A stretch of DNA of 64,000 nt, taken from an uncultured Candidatus Saccharibacteria bacterium (GTDB taxonomy: Bacteria > Patescibacteriota > Minisyncoccia > UBA9983). The position numbers were made by a program, and so were the translations under genes. The stretch covers positions 107,382 through 171,381 of the forward strand of contig CAYJQX010000001.1 of NCBI GenBank assembly GCA_964372755.1, written 5' to 3'. Below are positions 4,403 to 47,846 of this stretch, piece by piece; position 1 is the first letter of the stretch, and each line of letters starts with the position of its first letter. The notes under the pieces are model-generated. The model saw only the letters and a list, made by a program, of their open reading frames with translations. It ran no database searches and was not told where the DNA came from.

Positions 4403-4648
4403 GTGTTTATGTATTATGTTTATCTTTTGGAGTGTGCCGATAAAACATTTTATGTGGGCAGTACAAAGGATTTAAGCAAACGCATTATCGCCCACAACAC
4501 AAAAAAATCTGGAGCTCATTACACAAAAATTCGCCGGCCGGTGGTTCTCAAGTATAAAGAGAAGGTCTCCACTTACTCGGAAGCGCGAAAGCGTGAGGCG
4601 GAAATAAAATCTCTTTCTAGAGAAGAGAAAAGAAGATTGTTTAAGTGA
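4403..4648 (+). CDS. GIY-YIG nuclease domain protein
   Basis: YYVYLLEC...FYVGST...R..HN pattern typical of stand-alone GIY-YIG. Confidence 0.8.
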
Positions 4649-29456: not shown

Positions 29457-29475
29457 CATACATTGTCGGTTTCTG

Positions 29476-29948
29476 TATTGTGGTCTATAAGCCGAATTCT
29501 GTCCCCGATTTTAACGTCGGGGCGCGATCATTTATCTTGTTCCGCTTCTCGCGAAACGGAATCCTTGCGGCACATCCGCCGATGAGGCGGATACGGCCTT
29601 GCACCGGGTAGGGTTTACCACTCTTTTCTGTTGCCAAAAAAGAGACTGCGATAGCTTTTAGATTTCTCTCAAAAACATTCGCAAACTTTTCACCTTTCAT
29701 TTCGCGTAGCGAAATGACCCTGAGCGAGACCAACTTCAGGTTGGCACAGTCGAAGGGTATCTCTCGCTCGGGATAATTTCGCTACGCGAAATTAGTATTG
29801 TCTCTGTGACACTTTCCCTCCCTCAGAGATTGCCCTCCGAGGTGACAGGTGTTACCTGTTGCCCATATCTTTTATTGATTACTCAAAAAAGATGGTGTTC
29901 GGACTTTCCTCCCCTCGACAAAGCTCGGGGCGATCACGCGACCACATT
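29476..29948 (-). ncRNA. rnpB: RNase P RNA (bacterial type A-like); boundaries approximate
   Basis: minus-strand matches to universally conserved blocks: GGGAGGAAAGTCCGAACACC (P4 5' strand, CR-I), GGTAAACCCTACCCGGTGCAAGGCC (cf. E. coli GGUAAACUCCACCCGGAGCAAGGCC), ACAGAATTCGGCTTAT (P4 3' strand, cf. ACAGAACCCGGCUUAU); P3 hairpin CCCCGAGC...TCGAGGGG. Confidence 0.8.
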
Positions 29949-29979
29949 AAAGAAACCTAAGTCAATTCTACTACATTAT

Positions 29980-40909: not shown

Positions 40910-40981
40910 ACGCCCTCATAGTTCAATGGATAGAACAGTCCCGTCCTAAGGGATAGATGTAGGTTCGATTCCTACTGCGGG
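40910..40981 (+). tRNA. tRNA-Arg (anticodon CCT)
   Basis: manual fold: D-arm GTTC/GAAC, anticodon arm GTCCC-GTCCTAA-GGGAT, T-arm GTAGG-TTCGATT-CCTAC; one acceptor mismatch. Confidence 0.8.
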
Positions 40982-40997
40982 CATGGAGATGTTGATA

Positions 40998-41068
40998 GCG
41001 GGCCTATAGTTCAACGGTAGAATGCCTCCATGGCATGGAGGAGGTTGGAGTTCGATTCTCCATAGGTC
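40998..41068 (+). tRNA. tRNA-Ala (anticodon GGC) with G3:U70
   Basis: manual fold: acceptor GGGCCTA/TAGGTCC, anticodon arm CCTCC-ATGGCAT-GGAGG, T-arm TGGAG-TTCGATT-CTCCA. Confidence 0.85.
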
Positions 41069-41103
41069 CAACCAGATAAGAACTTTTATTTGCAATAACT
41101 TTA

Positions 41104-41517
41104 ATGAATAAAAGAAAAAAAACCATAGGATTGATATTTGGAGTTATCATTTTTTATTACGTCCTCCAATATGCTTCAAGCGCCGTTCATTATAATTGCG
41201 CGATCATTAAAGATGACTGTGTTCCGCCGATTAATGGCGCGAGTGAACTTATATATAGGGCAATTGTTCAACCGCCGTGGCTGGATCAATTTGAAATTAA
41301 ACCGACGACGTATCCTTTTAAGGATGGAAAATTCAGTTTTTGGGAAGGGGAAGTAGATGGAAAAACGGTGGTTATTAGAGTGCCTGAGGATGGTAGCCCG
41401 GTACTGCAGTGGATATTTGAAGAAGGATTACCGGGAGGAGTTCAGATTCGTCATGCTCACGGCGATCATGTTATAAAATGGTTTGAAACTCACCCCGAAT
41501 ATAAATTAGGTGGATGA
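41104..41517 (+). CDS. hypothetical membrane-anchored/secreted protein
   Basis: N-terminal TM then soluble domain, 137 aa. Confidence 0.4.
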   Translation: MNKRKKTIGLIFGVIIFYYVLQYASSAVHYNCAIIKDDCVPPINGASELIYRAIVQPPWLDQFEIKPTTYPFKDGKFSFWEGEVDGKTVVIRVPEDGSPVLQWIFEEGLPGGVQIRHAHGDHVIKWFETHPEYKLGG

Positions 41518-41640
41518 GTATTTGGACTAACTTCTAAATCCGGCTAACATATTTTAAAGTAAAGCTTTTTATTTAGTTGTGTAAAGGCAATAATCGTCTA
41601 TTATGTAAGTAATAAGAAGCCAGCTAAAACTTTTATTTTT

Positions 41641-44367
41641 TTGAATAATTCAATATCAAAGATTGACAAAGTTTTTTGGTACAGGGAAACAATCCCAAGA
41701 GTTTTAGAAATTCTTAATTCATACGAAAAAGGTTTATCTAATGAAGAAGCGCAAAGACGCCTCCGGATTTATGGACAAAACAAACTTCCAGAAGTAAAAA
41801 CCGATAGTTACTTTTTGATTTTTTTGAGGCAATTCCAAAATCCCCTCATTTATATCCTCTTTTTTGCTGCCGGTATAATTTTTGCAATCGGAGAGATCAC
41901 TGACGGCTTCATTATTTTCACGGTGCTTATTTTTAATGCGATTGTAGGTAGTATTCAGGAAGGAAAAGCTCAAAATACTTTGCTGGCCTTGAAGAAATTT
42001 ACGGAAACTTCAGCGACTGTTTTAAGGGAAGGAAAAGAAATTATAATTTCTGATACAGAAATTGTGCCCGGGGACATTATTCTTCTCCAAGAAGGAGAAA
42101 AGATTCCATCTGACGCCAGAATTATTTTTACAAACACCTTGAAAATTGACGAAGCCAGTTTGACCGGCGAATCTGGACCGGTTTCTAAGACAGAAACAAT
42201 TTTATCGTCAATAAACTCCTCATCTAAAGAGTCTATTATTCCAGTTTCTGATCAAAGAAATATGGTTTTTAAAGGAACTAACGTGTTGAGTGGCCATGGC
42301 ACTGCTTTGGTTGTGGCCACAGGCGTTAATACTGAAATTGGTAAAATAGCCAAAAAAATAAGCAAAATCGACACGGAAATACCGCTTAAAACAAATATCC
42401 GTTATCTCTCACGCATTATTATCATTACGGTGGTTGTAATTAGTCTGATATTGATTGGCTTAGGACTTTCCTCTGGTGAAAGCATAAAGGAAATGTTTAA
42501 AACAGTAGTTGCTTTGTCCGTTTCTATAATTCCCGAAGGTTTACCGATTGTGATGACATTGGTTTTGGCAACAGGCGTAAGAAGAATGTCCAAGAGAAAT
42601 GTTTTAGTGAAAAGATTACAGGCAGTAGAGGCGCTGGGGCAGACTAAGATCATTGCTGTCGATAAAACAGGCACTTTAACCAAAAATGAAATGGTTATAC
42701 AGCGTGTTTTTGTTGATGGTAAAAATTATGAAATTGGCGGAAGTGGTTATGAACCAAAGGGGGATGTTTTTTTGAATGGCGAGATAATTGACCCATTGAG
42801 CCATAATGGTTTGGTTTTAAGCGCAAAAGTGGCCGGATTTTTTACAGGAGCCAAACTTTCCTTTCTGGAATCAGAAGGAATTTGGAAGATTGCTGGTGAT
42901 CCCACGGAAGCGGCTCTTCAAGTTTTTTCCGAGAAAGTGGGATTTCAGAGAGATTTGCTGGAAAAAGAATTGCCAAAAGTTTTTGAAATCCCTTTTGACT
43001 ATAAGAAAAAATTCCATTCGGTGATTCGGCAAATGAAAGGAGAAAATTTTTTGGCTGTTACAGGCGCGCCTGAAAAAGTTTTAGATCTTTGTAAAAATAT
43101 TTGGCATGAAAAAGGGCAGGAACTATTGAATGAGGAAAAAAGAAAGGAATTAGAAATATTTTTTGATGAAATGGCCGGAAAAGGTTTTCGTCTTGTAGCT
43201 TGCGCTATAAATTCTCAAATGAAGGAAAACATAGACCTTGAAGACATTCCACCCCTTAGTTTTCTGGGACTCTTTGGGATGAAAGACGCAGTTCGTTCGG
43301 AGGTAAAAGAAGCCATACAAAAAGTACGAGAAGCAGGTATGCGTCTTGTAATGATCACGGGAGATCATCGTCTTACCGCTTATGCTGTCGCCAGAGAAGC
43401 CGGTCTTTGGCGAGAAGGAGAAAATATTTTAACTGGCGAAGAAATAGACACGATGACTGGTGAGGAACTGAAAGAAAAAATTGCTAAAACAACAGTGTTT
43501 GCCAGAGTTACCCCTGATCATAAATTAAAAATTATTCAAGCTTATCGTAATAGAGGCGAGATAGTGGCAATGACAGGGGACGGGGTAAATGATGCTCCGT
43601 CTCTTGTTGCGGCTGATCTTGGCGTGGCAATGGGTAAGATTGGCACCGAAGTAACAAAAGAGGCTTCTGATATTGTGCTTTTGGATGATAATTTTGCCAG
43701 TATTATTTCCGCGGCGGAAGAGGGGAGGGGTATATACAAAACAATAAAAAAAGTGATGCTCTATCTTTTTTCTACGAGTATGGGCGAAGTTCTTGTGATT
43801 GCCGGCTCTATTCTCTTGGATTTTCCACTCCCGCTTATTGCGGCACAGATCATATGGCTTAATTTTGTAACGGATGGCTTTCTTGATGTTGCTCTAGCGA
43901 TGGAACCAAAAGAAGAAGGATTGATGAGAGGAAAATTTGAAAAACCAAAAAAATGGATAATAGACAACTTAATGGTCAAAAGAATGTTCTTGATGTCTTT
44001 ACCGATGGCTATAGGCACTCTTTTTCTTTTTTCGAAATATTTTGAGAGCGACCTCACGAAGGCTTGGACAATTTCGCTTACAACCTTGGCTGTTTTTCAA
44101 TGGTTCAATGCTTGGAATTGTCGATCGGAGAGGGAGTCTATTTTCAGGATGAATCCCTTTTCTAATAAGTTTCTTTTAGGAGCGACATTTGTGGTAATAT
44201 CTTTGCAGATAATGGCTTTGCACCTTCCCTTTTTGCAAAGAATTTTGCATACTAAGCCACTCCTGTTGTCTGAATGGGTCGCCATTGCTTTAATAGCCAC
44301 ATCAGTTATTCTAATAGAAGAGATAAGAAAAATTTTCTCAAGAAGGAATGTCTTCAAAACTTTTTAA
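41641..44367 (+). CDS. P-type ATPase, P2-type cation (Ca2+/Mg2+-like) transporter
   Basis: DKTGTLT phosphorylation motif, TGDGVNDAPSL, 10-TM architecture, PEGLP. Confidence 0.85.
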   Translation: MNNSISKIDKVFWYRETIPRVLEILNSYEKGLSNEEAQRRLRIYGQNKLPEVKTDSYFLIFLRQFQNPLIYILFFAAGIIFAIGEITDGFIIFTVLIFNAIVGSIQEGKAQNTLLALKKFTETSATVLREGKEIIISDTEIVPGDIILLQEGEKIPSDARIIFTNTLKIDEASLTGESGPVSKTETILSSINSSSKESIIPVSDQRNMVFKGTNVLSGHGTALVVATGVNTEIGKIAKKISKIDTEIPLKTNIRYLSRIIIITVVVISLILIGLGLSSGESIKEMFKTVVALSVSIIPEGLPIVMTLVLATGVRRMSKRNVLVKRLQAVEALGQTKIIAVDKTGTLTKNEMVIQRVFVDGKNYEIGGSGYEPKGDVFLNGEIIDPLSHNGLVLSAKVAGFFTGAKLSFLESEGIWKIAGDPTEAALQVFSEKVGFQRDLLEKELPKVFEIPFDYKKKFHSVIRQMKGENFLAVTGAPEKVLDLCKNIWHEKGQELLNEEKRKELEIFFDEMAGKGFRLVACAINSQMKENIDLEDIPPLSFLGLFGMKDAVRSEVKEAIQKVREAGMRLVMITGDHRLTAYAVAREAGLWREGENILTGEEIDTMTGEELKEKIAKTTVFARVTPDHKLKIIQAYRNRGEIVAMTGDGVNDAPSLVAADLGVAMGKIGTEVTKEASDIVLLDDNFASIISAAEEGRGIYKTIKKVMLYLFSTSMGEVLVIAGSILLDFPLPLIAAQIIWLNFVTDGFLDVALAMEPKEEGLMRGKFEKPKKWIIDNLMVKRMFLMSLPMAIGTLFLFSKYFESDLTKAWTISLTTLAVFQWFNAWNCRSERESIFRMNPFSNKFLLGATFVVISLQIMALHLPFLQRILHTKPLLLSEWVAIALIATSVILIEEIRKIFSRRNVFKTF

Positions 44368-44560
44368 AGATCTCAAGCATTATGTCTCTAGCCGACCTAA
44401 AACCAGAAAAACAGTCGGAATTTTTCTGGTTGTCGTAGGTTTTTTGGCTCTCGTGACACCTCTTACTCCCGGCTCGTGGCTTATTTTTGTAGGCTTTGAG
44501 TTGCTGGGTATTCGATTCTTGTTTTTGGAAAAAATTAGAAAATGGAGAACAAAAAATTAG
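44348..44560 (+). CDS. small membrane protein (tentative)
   Basis: 70-aa ORF with two hydrophobic segments; overlaps ends of neighbours. Confidence 0.3.
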   Translation: MSSKLFKDLKHYVSSRPKTRKTVGIFLVVVGFLALVTPLTPGSWLIFVGFELLGIRFLFLEKIRKWRTKN

Positions 44561-45591
44561 AAATATATTTTCTCGCTTTTCTTATCTTGGGTGTGGCAAC
44601 ACTTTTCTTTTTTGTTTTTACGCCATTTCTTTATTCCCTTGTAATGGCTGTTGTTTTCTTTAATGTTTTTAGCCCCTTGCATCAAAAAATCCTGTCTTTT
44701 TTTAGAAACCAAGAAGGAACTTCCGCTTTTTTATCCACGATGCTTGTTTTTCTTATTGTGATAACGCCACTTTTTTTCATTTTCTTCCAGATTTTCAAGG
44801 AGGCAAGCGAACTTTATTTTTTCTTAATACAAAAAGGTGGAGCAGAGCGTTTTTCTGAAAATCTCGGCCAACACACTTTAAATTTTTTAAAAACTTTGCC
44901 TTATTCCGAAAAAATATTTCTAGACATTAATTCTTTCCTGAAAGAGGGATTGGCCTCACTTCTTTCAGGTTTAGGATCAATTTTCGCGGATGTGGCAAAA
45001 AAAACTTTAAGTCTAATCATCTCTCTTTTCGTTTTTCTCGTTACCCTTTATTATCTTTTTAAAGACGGTTCAAAACTTAAAAAATTTATTCTTCGCCTAA
45101 GCCCTCTTCACGATATTCACGACAATACTATATTCGACAAATTATCTTTAGCGATTAACTCGGTAATAAAAGGAAGCCTCGTGGTGGCTCTTGCTCAAGG
45201 TTTTCTAACCGCTCTTGGTTTTTTTATTTTCGGTGTTCCAAACTTTGTTCTCTGGGGAAGCGTCGCTTCTGTGGCGGCTTTAATTCCCGGAGTGGGTACC
45301 TCTTTGGTGATTCTTCCGGCTGTGGTCTTCTTATATTTCAAAGGCGGTTTGTTTCTTTCTCTGGGTTTGTTTCTTTGGGGGATTTTAGCTGTGGGCTTGA
45401 TTGATAATTTCTTGGGGCCAAAACTTGTGGGGAGAGGAACTCGCCTCCATCCCCTGCTGGTTCTTTTTTCGGTATTAGGTGGAGTAGCTTTTTTCGGACC
45501 TTTAGGATTTTTGCTAGGACCCCTTGTGACAAGCCTCCTTTTTGCTTTACTTGATGTTTATTTTTCTTTAAGGAATGATATTAAAACTTAA
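44542..45591 (+). CDS. AI-2E family transporter (UPF0118/PerM)
   Basis: 8-TM protein with GPKLVGRGTRLHPLLVLFSVLGG...GPLGFLLGP. Confidence 0.8.
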   Translation: MENKKLEIYFLAFLILGVATLFFFVFTPFLYSLVMAVVFFNVFSPLHQKILSFFRNQEGTSAFLSTMLVFLIVITPLFFIFFQIFKEASELYFFLIQKGGAERFSENLGQHTLNFLKTLPYSEKIFLDINSFLKEGLASLLSGLGSIFADVAKKTLSLIISLFVFLVTLYYLFKDGSKLKKFILRLSPLHDIHDNTIFDKLSLAINSVIKGSLVVALAQGFLTALGFFIFGVPNFVLWGSVASVAALIPGVGTSLVILPAVVFLYFKGGLFLSLGLFLWGILAVGLIDNFLGPKLVGRGTRLHPLLVLFSVLGGVAFFGPLGFLLGPLVTSLLFALLDVYFSLRNDIKT

Positions 45592-45710
45592 ATAATCAGG
45601 GTTCTTGAAAAAGAAAAATGTGGGTGTTAGGATAGCGAAGTCTGGTTTTTATAAATTTTGTTGATATAAAAAGTTACTAACTGTTTGCTTTTTCCGTTCT
45701 ACATATAGAA

Positions 45711-46454: not shown

Positions 46455-46793
46455 TTGTTAGGATTAAAAATCATGGATGAAGAACTAAAGGCGTTGATGA
46501 AAAGAGATGTGGAAATCTCCGAAGAGTCTCTCAAAATCTTGCGGTCTATGCGCCGAGCCCAAAGGATTGGCACTATTTTTACGGCGATAAAATGGGTATT
46601 TATCATTGCTGTAACCGTGGGTTCTTATTACATTGTCCAACCATTTCTTGAAAAAGGGCTGGAGGCGATAGTTGATCCGGCCGGACTCCTAAATTCTCAA
46701 GGGCAAGGAATTTTAAACCCGAGCAGTCTGAATGCTGATACATTGGAGAAATTGAAGGAGGTTCTTTTGAAGAATGGAAATCTAGGACGTTGA
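46455..46793 (+). CDS. hypothetical membrane protein
   Basis: 112 aa, one TM. Confidence 0.4.
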   Translation: MLGLKIMDEELKALMKRDVEISEESLKILRSMRRAQRIGTIFTAIKWVFIIAVTVGSYYIVQPFLEKGLEAIVDPAGLLNSQGQGILNPSSLNADTLEKLKEVLLKNGNLGR

Positions 46794-46820
46794 CCGAAGA
46801 TACTTTTTTGGGCTATGATT

Positions 46821-46845
46821 AAGGCCGGGTAGGGCCTTTTTGTTT
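46821..46845 (+). terminator. rho-independent terminator (AAGGCC-GGGTAG-GGCCTT-T5GTTTT)
   Basis: GC stem plus T-run. Confidence 0.6.
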
Positions 46846-46864
46846 TGTGGGGAAGTAATTTTTA

Positions 46865-46925
46865 GCCATGGTAGCTCAGTGGTACCCGCCCGAACGACTG
46901 AAGTCGTTCAGTCGGGCGGGGAGCG
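46865..46925 (+). pseudogene. tRNA-Phe 5' fragment (positions 1-26) carrying a 36-nt GC-rich hairpin in the D-loop
   Basis: GCCATGGTAGCTCAGTGGTA identical to the 5' end of the intact tRNA-Phe at 47180, then CCCGCCCG-AACGACTGAAGTCGTTCAGT-CGGGCGGG, then GAGCG; no anticodon arm follows. Confidence 0.6.
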
Positions 46926-47179
46926 TGCCCTTACACTCTTGCATATATATACGGTGTACGTCTTGAGTGATAATATCGGCAAACTGTACAAGGGGATGGA
47001 CCCATGGGCCTTGCGCGGCGGCTCCGTGAACACCGCCACTGGGCGCACAAGAACAACGGCTCAGATGACAGGTTTGAGGGTCATTCACAAGGAGATTTCC
47101 TCCTCTGTTCGAGAGGCCTCGCGCAAGAGAAAAGTACCTTGAGACAGCAGCGGGGCTAAAAGTTTTTGGAAAAAATTTT

Positions 47180-47254
47180 GCCATGGTAGCTCAGTGGTAG
47201 AGCGCATCCCTGAAGAGGATGGCGTCGGGTGTTCGATTCACCCCCGTGGCACCA
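47180..47254 (+). tRNA. tRNA-Phe (anticodon GAA), CCA encoded
   Basis: manual fold: GCCATGG-TA-GCTC-AGTGGTA-GAGC-G-CATCC-CTGAAGA-GGATG-GCGTC-GGGTG-TTCGATT-CACCC-CCGTGGC-A-CCA. Confidence 0.9.
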
Positions 47255-47256
47255 AG

Positions 47257-47335
47257 CCTGAAGAGGATGGCGTCGGGTGTTCCCCGCCCGCATGACTCGC
47301 GTCAGCGTGTCGGGCGGGGATTCACCCCCGTGGCA
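47257..47335 (+). repeat. partial direct duplicate of tRNA-Phe (positions ~30-73) with a 38-nt GC-rich hairpin inserted in the T-loop
   Basis: CCTGAAGAGGATGGCGTCGGGTGTT-[CCCCGCCCG...CGGGCGGGG]-ATTCACCCCCGTGGCA immediately after the intact tRNA. Confidence 0.65.
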
Positions 47336-47354
47336 TTTTGTTTATTATTAATAT

Positions 47355-47390
47355 CAAAAAAGACCAATTTTTAGGTTGGTCTTTTTTGGT
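47355..47390. terminator. bidirectional terminator (AAAGACCAA-loop-TTGGTCTTT)
   Basis: 9-bp stem flanked by A- and T-runs between the tRNA-Phe cluster (+) and hsp20 (-). Confidence 0.65.
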
Positions 47391-47846
47391 TTATTCATTT
47401 TTTATTTTTAGTCTTTGCACTCTTTCTTTGTCCAGTTTTTGCACTCGCACGGTAAGCATGCCGTTTTTCATGGTTGCCTCGGCTTCATCGGGGTCTACTT
47501 CTTGAGGCAGAAGAAGGGTTCGTCCAAAATTTCCCCAATAGAGTTCCCTTTCAAAAAAATCGCCGTCGTCCACCCTTCGAGTGTCCATCCTTTTGCCTTT
47601 TATAGTTACCATATCTTGAGTGATTGAGACATCCAAATCTTCCATTCTGGCGCCTGCCACCATGGCTTGCACAACTATCTCTGTTGCTGTTTGATATGCG
47701 TCCACCGAAAGCTGGCCTTCTTCCAAATCTTCTTCGGCCTCTTTAAGGAGAGATCGCTCTCCTTTTTTCATAGGGGTTAATTCTTCTTCTGGTTCTTCTC
47801 TGTAGCTTCCTGTCAAACGCTCAAAAAAAGATCTTTTTTCTTTCAT
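47391..47846 (-). CDS. Hsp20/alpha-crystallin family small heat-shock protein
   Basis: alpha-crystallin domain ...GKRMDTRR...GMLTVRVQK; start placed at MKEKRSFF. Confidence 0.85.
   Translation of the reverse strand: MKEKRSFFERLTGSYREEPEEELTPMKKGERSLLKEAEEDLEEGQLSVDAYQTATEIVVQAMVAGARMEDLDVSITQDMVTIKGKRMDTRRVDDGDFFERELYWGNFGRTLLLPQEVDPDEAEATMKNGMLTVRVQKLDKERVQRLKIKNE

Follow-up and report, generated by a model that had tools for sequence, protein, structure and literature searches.

A putative selfish GIY-YIG nuclease cassette in decay at a tRNA-Phe locus of Candidatus Saccharibacteria

The tRNA-Phe locus considered here is situated at positions 46865–47335 of a stretch of 64,000 nucleotides (nt), hereafter the window, from contig CAYJQX010000001.1 of an uncultured Candidatus Saccharibacteria bacterium. 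At this locus an intact tRNA-Phe gene is flanked by a 5' and a 3' fragment of the same gene, each interrupted by a GC-rich hairpin of 36 bp. Judging by homology, the DNA between the 5' fragment and the intact gene is a frameshifted pseudogene of a UPF0213-like GIY-YIG nuclease of ~80 amino acids (aa), a key component that had been overlooked in an earlier inspection of the locus from the letters alone (below, the sequence-only reading). The locus is probably a decayed selfish cassette, associated with a tRNA gene and resembling homing endonuclease genes, that was built around this minimal nuclease, and the copy in the window is a dead relic.

Organization of the tRNA-Phe locus

The three pieces of tRNA-Phe and the two hairpins are located where the sequence-only reading had placed them, and both remnants match the intact copy (repeats D2, D3, and D5). 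All these features are on the plus strand. The 5' remnant (46865–46884) contains tRNA positions 1–21 in 20 nt, i.e., the 5' strand of the acceptor stem, the D-stem, and the D-loop, and is identical to 47180–47199 of the intact copy (repeat D3). At D-loop position 21/22 it is interrupted by hairpin A (46885–46920), a GC-rich palindromic insert CCCGCCCG-AACGACTGAAGTCGTTCAGT-CGGGCGGG of 36 bp, whose predicted DNA fold has an energy of −15.3 kcal/mol (z = −6.2). GAGCG (46921–46925; tRNA positions 22–26) and a leader extending to 46944 come next. The leader sequence TGCCCT is similar to the anticodon stem CTGCC-CT of a relative's tRNA-Phe, which might, as a weak inference, take the remnant as far as U33. 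The nuclease pseudogene, identified by tblastn and by a hidden Markov model (HMM) of the family, occupies 46945–47175. It is followed by the intact tRNA-Phe(GAA) at 47180–47254 (found by ARAGORN; Rfam tRNA, 65.1 bits), which encodes its CCA and is presumably functional.

Only 2 nt (AG) separate the intact tRNA-Phe from the 3' remnant. The latter starts with tRNA positions 31–56 (47257–47282), 100% identical to 47209–47234 (repeat D2), is interrupted at T-loop position 56/57 by hairpin B (47283–47318), a 36-bp palindromic insert CCCGCCCG-CATGACTCGCGTCAGCGTGT-CGGGCGGG recognized by the palindrome pattern and the DNA fold, and ends with positions 57–73 (47319–47335; repeat D5 and alignment). Positions 27–30 are absent between the outer pieces. 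Relative to the intact copy, both inserts are exact 36-bp additions with no target-site duplication, at the junctions GGTA/GAGC in the D-loop and GTTC/GATT in the T-loop (the slash marks the point of insertion); filled and empty hairpin sites thus coexist within the window itself. The pattern CCGCCCG-N(10-40)-CGGGCGG occurs twice in the 64-kb window, at these two inserts, and in 0 of 100 shuffled sequences.

The homology of the spacer was revealed by lining up remnants and downstream tRNAs from several loci, and it is detectable at the protein level only. Here and below, L-numbers denote loci fetched from genome collections, either by the hairpin pattern or by protein. Spacers of 253–260 nt are mutually alignable in four loci, namely, the window, L019, L079, and L060, and in the latter three the spacer is an ORF (open reading frame) of ~80 aa that begins just past the remnant and whose stop codon overlaps the very beginning of the intact tRNA. 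Pfam searches with the proteins of L019 and L079 gave matches to the GIY-YIG domain (PF01541; cut-off 22.6 bits) of 45.3 bits (E = 1e-11) and 42.5 bits (E = 8e-11), respectively.

The window copy is 43% identical to the L079 protein (tblastn, 46945–47175, E = 6e-16) and is matched by the family HMM in frame 0 (E = 7e-15). The columns Y, G, Y, E, R, E, Y, and K are invariant in the alignment of the family; in the window these residues are split over three frames, with YTVYVL...GKLYKG and GRTRTT in frame 0, LARRLREH in frame 2, and REKYLETAAG in frame 1. This splitting, ATA at 46945 where the homologues have an ATG start, and an in-frame stop at 47140–47142 mark the window copy as a pseudogene. 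Since the gene is frameshifted, a Pfam search with single-frame ORFs of the window spacer gave no match; blastn of the spacer against all fetched loci and against phage genomes yielded nothing. The long-range complementarity that had been noticed in the spacer does exist, as GC-rich complementarity within two Arg-rich coding motifs of the pseudogene. The ~250-nt spacer is not a structured RNA, its RNA fold being no better than that of shuffled sequences (z = −1.16).

The nuclease family contains 120 close homologues of ~77–111 aa, mostly from the Candidate Phyla Radiation (CPR) and annotated as 'GIY-YIG nuclease family protein', and 2640 clusters (50% identity) match the family at E ≤ 1e-3. 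The nearest solved structures are the UPF0213 proteins 1ywl (EF2693; E = 2e-6) and 1zg2 (BH0048; E = 5e-6). These UPF0213/YhbQ-type proteins are single-domain and of equal size, whereas a conserved C-terminal motif, REVYFKTAAGRRFLKK, is peculiar to the cassette subfamily. To our knowledge, UPF0213 proteins have neither an assigned function nor a reported linkage to tRNA. There was no match for the family in PHROGs and PADLOC, and one distant match in a scan of viral contigs. The window also contains a second small GIY-YIG ORF (4410–4648, plus strand), which is of the canonical UPF0213/YhbQ type, is matched by the cassette-family HMM with E = 8.5e-12, and does not adjoin any tRNA or hairpin.

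Recurrent cassettes and the empty site

The arrangement of a 5' remnant with a hairpin, a GIY-YIG ORF, and an intact cognate tRNA was observed at more than 20 loci in CPR, Bacteroidota, Ignavibacteria, and Marinimicrobia. The mirror form (3'-type), i.e., a tRNA, an ORF, and a 3' remnant with a T-loop hairpin, recurs as well. Seven independent cassettes were fetched via the protein alone, and all seven, independently of the hairpin pattern, contain a hairpin-bearing remnant, the ORF, and an intact tRNA, the latter being cognate wherever the identity of the remnant could be read. Most of them are of the 5'-type, with the hairpin at D-loop position 21/22 or at 9/10 upstream of the ORF (L130/131, L136, L137-139, L140-145, and L147), and two are of the 3'-type (L148, and L146 with a different hairpin family). 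In related cassettes the hairpin site varies between positions 9/10, D-loop 21/22, anticodon 35/36, and T-loop 56/57. The stop codon of 5'-type ORFs is usually within the first 10 nt of the functional tRNA. Ten amino-acid specificities are represented among the tRNA genes that have cassettes (Val, Ile, Ala, Arg, Thr, Asp, Met, Ser, Leu, and Phe).

In at least 17 loci fetched by the hairpin, including metagenome-assembled genomes (MAGs) of the Fibrobacterota–Chlorobiota–Bacteroidota (FCB) group, a family ORF is situated no more than ~260 nt from the hairpin. Among the matches listed, 16 of 22 tRNA fragments with a D-loop hairpin have an intact same-strand tRNA 18–300 nt downstream, and 5 of 6 fragments with a T-loop hairpin have an intact tRNA 93–454 nt upstream (both in the tRNA sense). 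Over-called N-termini of family representatives often end with the peptide SGGER, which is the translation of CGGGCGGG-GAGCG, and hence a hairpin and a D-stem lie directly upstream of these ORFs.

Two cassettes of one MAG, at tRNA-Val(GAC) (L023) and tRNA-Val(UAC) (L060), share a block of ~100% identity that runs from the hairpin to a point ~20 nt short of the tRNA, and the first 13 nt of the remnant and the tRNA are locus-specific. This near-identity of paralogous cassettes is the sole indirect hint that a cassette-free allele may be cleaved site-specifically and undergo gene conversion. In the L023/L060 identity block, as in L117, the hairpin marks the border where cassette DNA gives way to the orphaned end of the tRNA. 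Anticodon-stem differences between the remnant and the intact copy were noted for the window, L019, L079, and L120.

Several loci have a more complex arrangement. Tandem near-identical 5' tRNA fragments with a D-loop hairpin were observed in L130 (~1040–1880), L025 (4358–4511), and L103 (294–434), and in L130 up to seven fragments are situated around and after the GIY-YIG ORF, whose stop codon is inside a hairpin. Two metagenomic variants, L140 and L144, are 100% identical rightward from the hairpin and unrelated leftward; on that side L144 has another GIY-YIG ORF, and its hairpin directly adjoins the 5' part of a different tRNA. The divergence exactly at the hairpin edge could be due to recombination or to an assembly chimera, and these variants were not used as evidence. 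In L098 (6100–6450, minus strand), an outer tRNA-Ile(GAU) with a D-loop hairpin is split at anticodon position 35/36 by an insert of ~130 nt, in which mutually complementary GC-rich and AT-rich arms hold a different intact tRNA-Ile(GAU) and no ORF; the outer tRNA-Ile forms a perfect cloverleaf once both inserts are removed. A metagenome scan with the junction between the tRNA and the 3' remnant of the window gave one chance match in a non-tRNA context.

The comparison with an empty site, proposed in the sequence-only reading, proved feasible. In L123/L124 (UppS 66% identical), the order is UppS, a small ORF, a plain and single tRNA-Phe that lacks CCA, a terminator, and, on the opposite strand, Hsp20. 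This closest syntenic relative with enough sequence thus has the empty site, and its comparison with the window reveals a presence/absence polymorphism at a conserved target, a feature expected of homing endonuclease genes. The 5' remnant lies downstream of a promoter region orthologous to that of L123, where a sigma-70-like candidate promoter TTGACC-18-TATGAT (46790–46819, plus strand), assigned by its match to the consensus, aligns with the upstream region of L123. The 3' remnant is followed by the orthologous context, i.e., ATCAAAAAA and a terminator. Given these orthologous flanks, the outer pieces mark the position of the ancestral gene and enclose the pseudogene and the tRNA with CCA. 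Of the 7 tRNAs in the window, 4 lack an encoded CCA, as do the 3' remnant and the L123 ortholog; in the inner tRNA-Phe the CCA is present and followed by AG (47252–47256).

The terminator-like hairpin of the window (47353–47390), of the intrinsic type, is common to the tRNA locus and the convergent Hsp20 gene. By inspection, the neighbors of the locus are UppS, a small membrane ORF, Hsp20, ValRS, and TsaD. In L122 (2140–2348), the closest relative (UppS 70% identical), the tRNA-Phe is inverted relative to UppS; beyond it come a T-arm piece, also inverted, other hairpins over ~100 nt, and finally a 3' remnant. The locus is a hot spot in this lineage. The genes of tRNA-Arg(CCU) and tRNA-Ala(GGC), which in L123 (98–404) are located ~150 nt upstream of UppS, are ~4.6 kb from UppS in the window (40912–45710), with a P-type ATPase and two membrane-protein ORFs in between.

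The 36-bp hairpin family

A scan of genome collections with a pattern that fixes the stem and six interior bases retrieved at least 119 loci. The search for further hairpin copies was therefore productive, and of the three suggestions of the sequence-only reading, the one of a hairpin element with tRNA loops as targets is supported: the 36-bp family is widespread, with hot spots at D-loop position 21/22 and T-loop position 56/57. The host range and the copy counts given in this section are among the matches listed. After exclusion of GC-rich chance matches, the hosts are MAGs of many CPR/Patescibacteria lineages, Bacteroidota, Ignavibacteria, Chlorobi-type bacteria, Planctomycetota, and others, and the sources include a closed chromosome (CP181398, L057) and a single-cell genome (L114). 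In viral contigs the hairpin pattern gave one GC-rich chance match.

The interior positions that the pattern left unfixed are strongly conserved. Hairpins A and B, initially regarded as near-identical, do have a common 8-bp stem, but about half of their 20 interior positions differ, and they represent distinct common alleles of a single family. Hairpin A is the most frequent allele (16/114 copies), and the allele of hairpin B is recurrent, with identical copies in L008, L054, and L082. The DNA folds of family members have energies from −14 to −17 kcal/mol, and compensatory changes were observed in both alternative upper helices of the 36-mer. A-type hairpins are found in D-loops and B-type hairpins in T-loops; since most of the T-loop hairpins come from FCB-group bacteria, this preference is confounded by taxonomy and we make no claim about it.

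Both orientations were observed at the same tRNA sites (6:6 in the D-loop and 3:3 in the T-loop). About one-quarter of the hairpins (26/106) are in-frame within long ORFs, where they are exact 12-aa insertions relative to homologues, e.g., in RecG (between DEQHRFG and TATPIPRT) and in a FemAB-like protein. The element is translated as PARTTxVVxSGG, PARPDDxGxSGG, or SPPERPESSGRAG in conserved proteins, which besides these two include tRNA-guanine transglycosylase (L100, L064, L011, L021, and L111). The two orientations and the in-frame addition of 12 codons to proteins identify the hairpins as DNA-level insertions, not RNA motifs or introns. Approximately 20% of all hairpins are at one tRNA position, and the junction TA/GA is 39-fold enriched at the insertion sites.

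The hairpins are thus multi-copy, hairpin-forming, and inserted relative to homologues, including in proteins, as selfish palindromic repeats are. With RNA motifs and introns ruled out, we place them with such palindromes, which include Rickettsia palindromic elements, the GC clusters of yeast mitochondria (PMC4478555), and the repetitive hairpin-forming elements of sponge mitochondria (PMC2800124). Common features are short, GC-rich, dispersed hairpins in AT-rich or reduced genomes, and insertion in-frame into conserved protein genes and also into RNA genes. In contrast to the known palindromes, the cassette hairpin is 36 bp long, has an unrelated sequence and sharp hot spots in tRNA D- and T-loops, is linked to a nuclease gene, and crosses phyla (MAGs of CPR, Bacteroidota, Ignavibacteria, Chlorobi-type bacteria, and Planctomycetota). 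No description of the 36-bp sequence was found in the searchable literature, which leaves out most subscription-journal papers.

When the 1053 ORFs with a length of 90 aa or more in the 8-kb neighborhoods of the hairpins were clustered, only housekeeping families emerged. Among these ORFs there was no recurrent transposase, including RAYT-type Y1 transposases (IS200/IS605-like), and a REP/REPIN-RAYT system was rejected since no associated RAYT gene is present in the neighborhoods. The clustering passed over the cassette nuclease because the latter, at ~80 aa, is under the cut-off of 90 aa.

Older pseudo-tRNAs with two or three different GC hairpins were found in L015 (4520–4680), L068 (400–760, minus strand), L109 (1350–1530), and L057 (3900–3990). 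A recurrent second hairpin family, CCTGCC...GGCAGG, is located in their D-stem, and another hairpin, of 14 nt, takes the place of the 5' anticodon strand up to position 35. The class A RNase P RNA of the window (29472–29949, minus strand) is 478 nt long, as compared with 367 positions in the model, and therefore has sizeable insertions; none of them has the CCCGCCCG stem.

Proposed origin and alternative explanations

If the locus is a decayed homing-endonuclease-like cassette, the nuclease would have acted as a free-standing homing endonuclease, similarly to SegB in the tRNA cluster of phage T4. The nuclease would cleave tRNA genes that lack the cassette, the ORF would be acquired upon repair from a copy that carries it, and the partial duplication would preserve the function of the essential single-copy tRNA after the invasion. 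In the window, a 5'-type cassette would have lost its nuclease to frameshifts, leaving the 5' remnant, hairpin A, and the pseudogene, and the 3' remnant with hairpin B would derive from a 3'-type cassette whose ORF is gone altogether, as in L096. With a single working tRNA-Phe left between the remains of the two types, the window would represent a late stage of a cycle of invasion, decay, and loss. The hairpin may be a terminal or cis element of the cassette; it may disable the remnant, either via cleavage immunity or by splitting the repeat below the recombination length; it may shield the nuclease mRNA at its distal end; or it may have colonized dead tRNA copies opportunistically.

The free-standing GIY-YIG homing endonucleases of T-even phages, such as SegB, share with the cassettes the localization of a nuclease gene among or against tRNA genes (PMC2988022, PMC13096335). 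Seg genes are also polymorphic for presence/absence between relatives, and the frameshifted window copy is in keeping with a selfish life cycle in which invasion is followed by decay and loss. On the other hand, Seg proteins and I-TevI carry DNA-binding domains, whereas the cassette proteins consist of the catalytic domain only. The cassettes are chromosomal in CPR and FCB-group bacteria, whereas Seg genes are found in phages, and the partial tRNA duplication and the GC hairpin in the remnant are cassette features not described for Seg genes.

Several considerations weigh against the homing cassette. A catalytic domain of 80 aa without a DNA-binding domain is unlikely to serve alone as a sequence-specific homing enzyme. 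In the cassettes it is the remnant that is disrupted by the hairpin, and the regenerated tRNA keeps intact D-loop and T-loop junctions; if such a junction is cut, the regenerated tRNA retains the site and the immunity of the cassette is unexplained. The 3' remnant, at 2 nt from the tRNA, has no trace of an ORF, and its 3'-type origin would be by analogy with L148, L107, and L096. As hairpins are also located far from GIY-YIG genes, in ORFs and intergenic regions and at varying sites, those in the remnants could be opportunistic. The encoded CCA of the inner tRNA, followed by AG, has no explanation, and neither has the mismatch between the 5' remnant (TGCCCT) and the 3' remnant (GGATG). Finally, as the family has no matches in PHROGs and PADLOC and essentially none in viral contigs, the link to phage homing endonucleases consists in fold and architecture only.

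A more far-reaching explanation, which we put forward tentatively and hold to be clearly less probable than the homing cassette, is that the small GIY-YIG protein and the 36-bp hairpin together constitute an unrecognized mobile element. The nuclease would then recognize or cut the hairpin, a cruciform, or the conserved tRNA junctions GGTTA/GAGC and GGTTC/GA; the element would install itself beside an essential tRNA, regenerating the latter by partial duplication, and would act in trans to move solo hairpins into the protein and RNA genes of CPR and FCB-group bacteria.

Alternatively, the hairpins could be independent selfish palindromic mini-elements that prefer tRNA-like TA/G or TC/G junctions and survive only in dead tRNA copies, so that the cassette merely supplies such copies and the link between the hairpin and the nuclease is incidental. 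Such independence agrees with the dispersal of the hairpins (those not in-frame in ORFs include intergenic ones) and their random orientation, with the enrichment of the TA/GA junction, with the varying insertion site among related cassettes, and with the gathering of several different hairpins in old remnants (L015, L068, and L109). Besides the family ORFs at tRNA-context hairpins, moreover, there is no recurrent protein family among ORFs of at least 90 aa near the hairpins. Against independence, these neighborhoods (8 kb, same length cut-off) contain no other candidate for a mobilizing enzyme. Incidental colonization is also difficult to reconcile with the hairpin in the remnant of all seven protein-sampled cassettes, its inclusion in the ~100% identity block of L023/L060, and the concentration of about one-fifth of the listed hairpins at a single tRNA position, a tiny share of genome positions. 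On the whole, we consider the independence of hairpin and nuclease doubtful.

A direct repeat from the anticodon region to the 3' end is the classic footprint of tRNA-targeting integrases, and the 3' remnant is a repeat of this kind. The sequence-only reading accordingly considered an excision scar, in which the remnants would be attL/attR-type footprints of a lost tyrosine-integrase element at the anticodon loop of tRNA-Phe. Such elements do resemble the cassette in that the disrupted tRNA is restored by a brought or duplicated part and an orphan fragment is left as a direct repeat. However, by inspection of the ORF list for 43–51 kb, no integrase-like ORF is located within ~4 kb; the intact tRNA and the 3' remnant are too close to each other, at 2 nt; the intervening DNA is a GIY-YIG gene; and 5' remnants directly upstream of the tRNA are the rule, being commoner across the loci among the matches listed. 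The cassette also differs from these elements in its unit of ~0.3 kb, its 5' and 3' duplications, and its hairpin-bearing orphans, and the integrase explanation appears highly improbable.

Equally remote is an RNA-level device, i.e., a processed split, permuted, or intron-containing tRNA-like RNA, or a ribozyme or group I intron in the spacer, although the minimum-free-energy fold pairs the outer acceptor strands and the outer tRNA-Ile of L098 folds perfectly without its two insertions. Group I introns are known in tRNA genes of Patescibacteria, including tRNA-Phe, at position 33/34 (PMC13011429), and they resemble the cassette in their hosts, tRNA targets, and insert size of ~250 nt. However, an Rfam scan of 46700–47500, at the gathering cut-off and at E ≤ 10, retrieved nothing but tRNA, so that a known RNA does not account for the region; the spacer is a coding sequence with an ordinary fold; the hairpins occur in both orientations and are read through as 12 codons in proteins; and in silico deletion of the hairpin restores a tRNA in 1 of 115 cases among the matches listed.

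Three specific candidates of this kind were rejected. A group I intron has no covariance-model match here, and the insert, which codes for a protein, is succeeded not by a 3' exon but by a tRNA that is complete from position 1. An archaeal-type split or permuted tRNA is at variance with the bacterial host, as indicated by the RNase P RNA of class A in the window, and with the missing positions 27–30; the joined outer pieces yield tRNA-Phe only with CATC supplied from the inner copy. An outer 'tRNA-Val', predicted by ARAGORN with introns allowed in the hairpin-free window, is an artifact, and the same approach in other loci gave nothing.

GIY-YIG ORFs have also been reported in non-intron insertion sequences of CPR rRNA genes (PMC11270868). 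The similarity to the cassettes consists in GIY-YIG ORFs in conserved CPR RNA genes with no recognizable intron. The reported elements reside inside rRNA genes, and tRNA genes, partial duplication, and hairpins are not mentioned there.

An assembly artifact can practically be dismissed: the source is a MAG, repeats of 24–26 nt with hairpins could confuse assembly graphs, and the divergence of L140 and L144 could be chimeric, but the hairpins, far from being confined to this locus, form a family of at least 119 loci with compensatory substitutions among variants, the same architecture is present in more than 20 genomes from many studies, including the closed chromosome and the single-cell genome, and a Logan assembly, made independently from run ERR4904390, likewise contains the intact tRNA, AG, the 3' remnant with hairpin B, and the terminator.

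GIY-YIG homing endonucleases, UPF0213 proteins, and selfish palindromes are already known separately. The fusion of a minimal GIY-YIG gene with a tRNA gene that has a partial, hairpin-tagged duplicate is undescribed in the searchable literature, most subscription-journal papers being outside it. UPF0213-like GIY-YIG proteins are widespread, and a subfamily that is welded to tRNA genes and combines polymorphism with decay provides a testable hypothesis of selfish tRNA-targeting nucleases. Regeneration by partial duplication is apparently a new way to occupy an essential single-copy RNA gene without an intron. The elements are common to MAGs of CPR and to those of Bacteroidota or Ignavibacteria, a hint that they may have passed from one phylum to another. 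The hairpins add 12 codons to conserved proteins such as RecG and Tgt and create pseudo-tRNAs, and hence are relevant for the annotation of CPR tRNA sets and proteins and for the assessment of MAG assembly quality. If the nuclease and the hairpin do form a joint mobile element, this would explain the hairpin insertions in conserved CPR protein genes and would provide the first biological role for a part of the UPF0213/YhbQ family.

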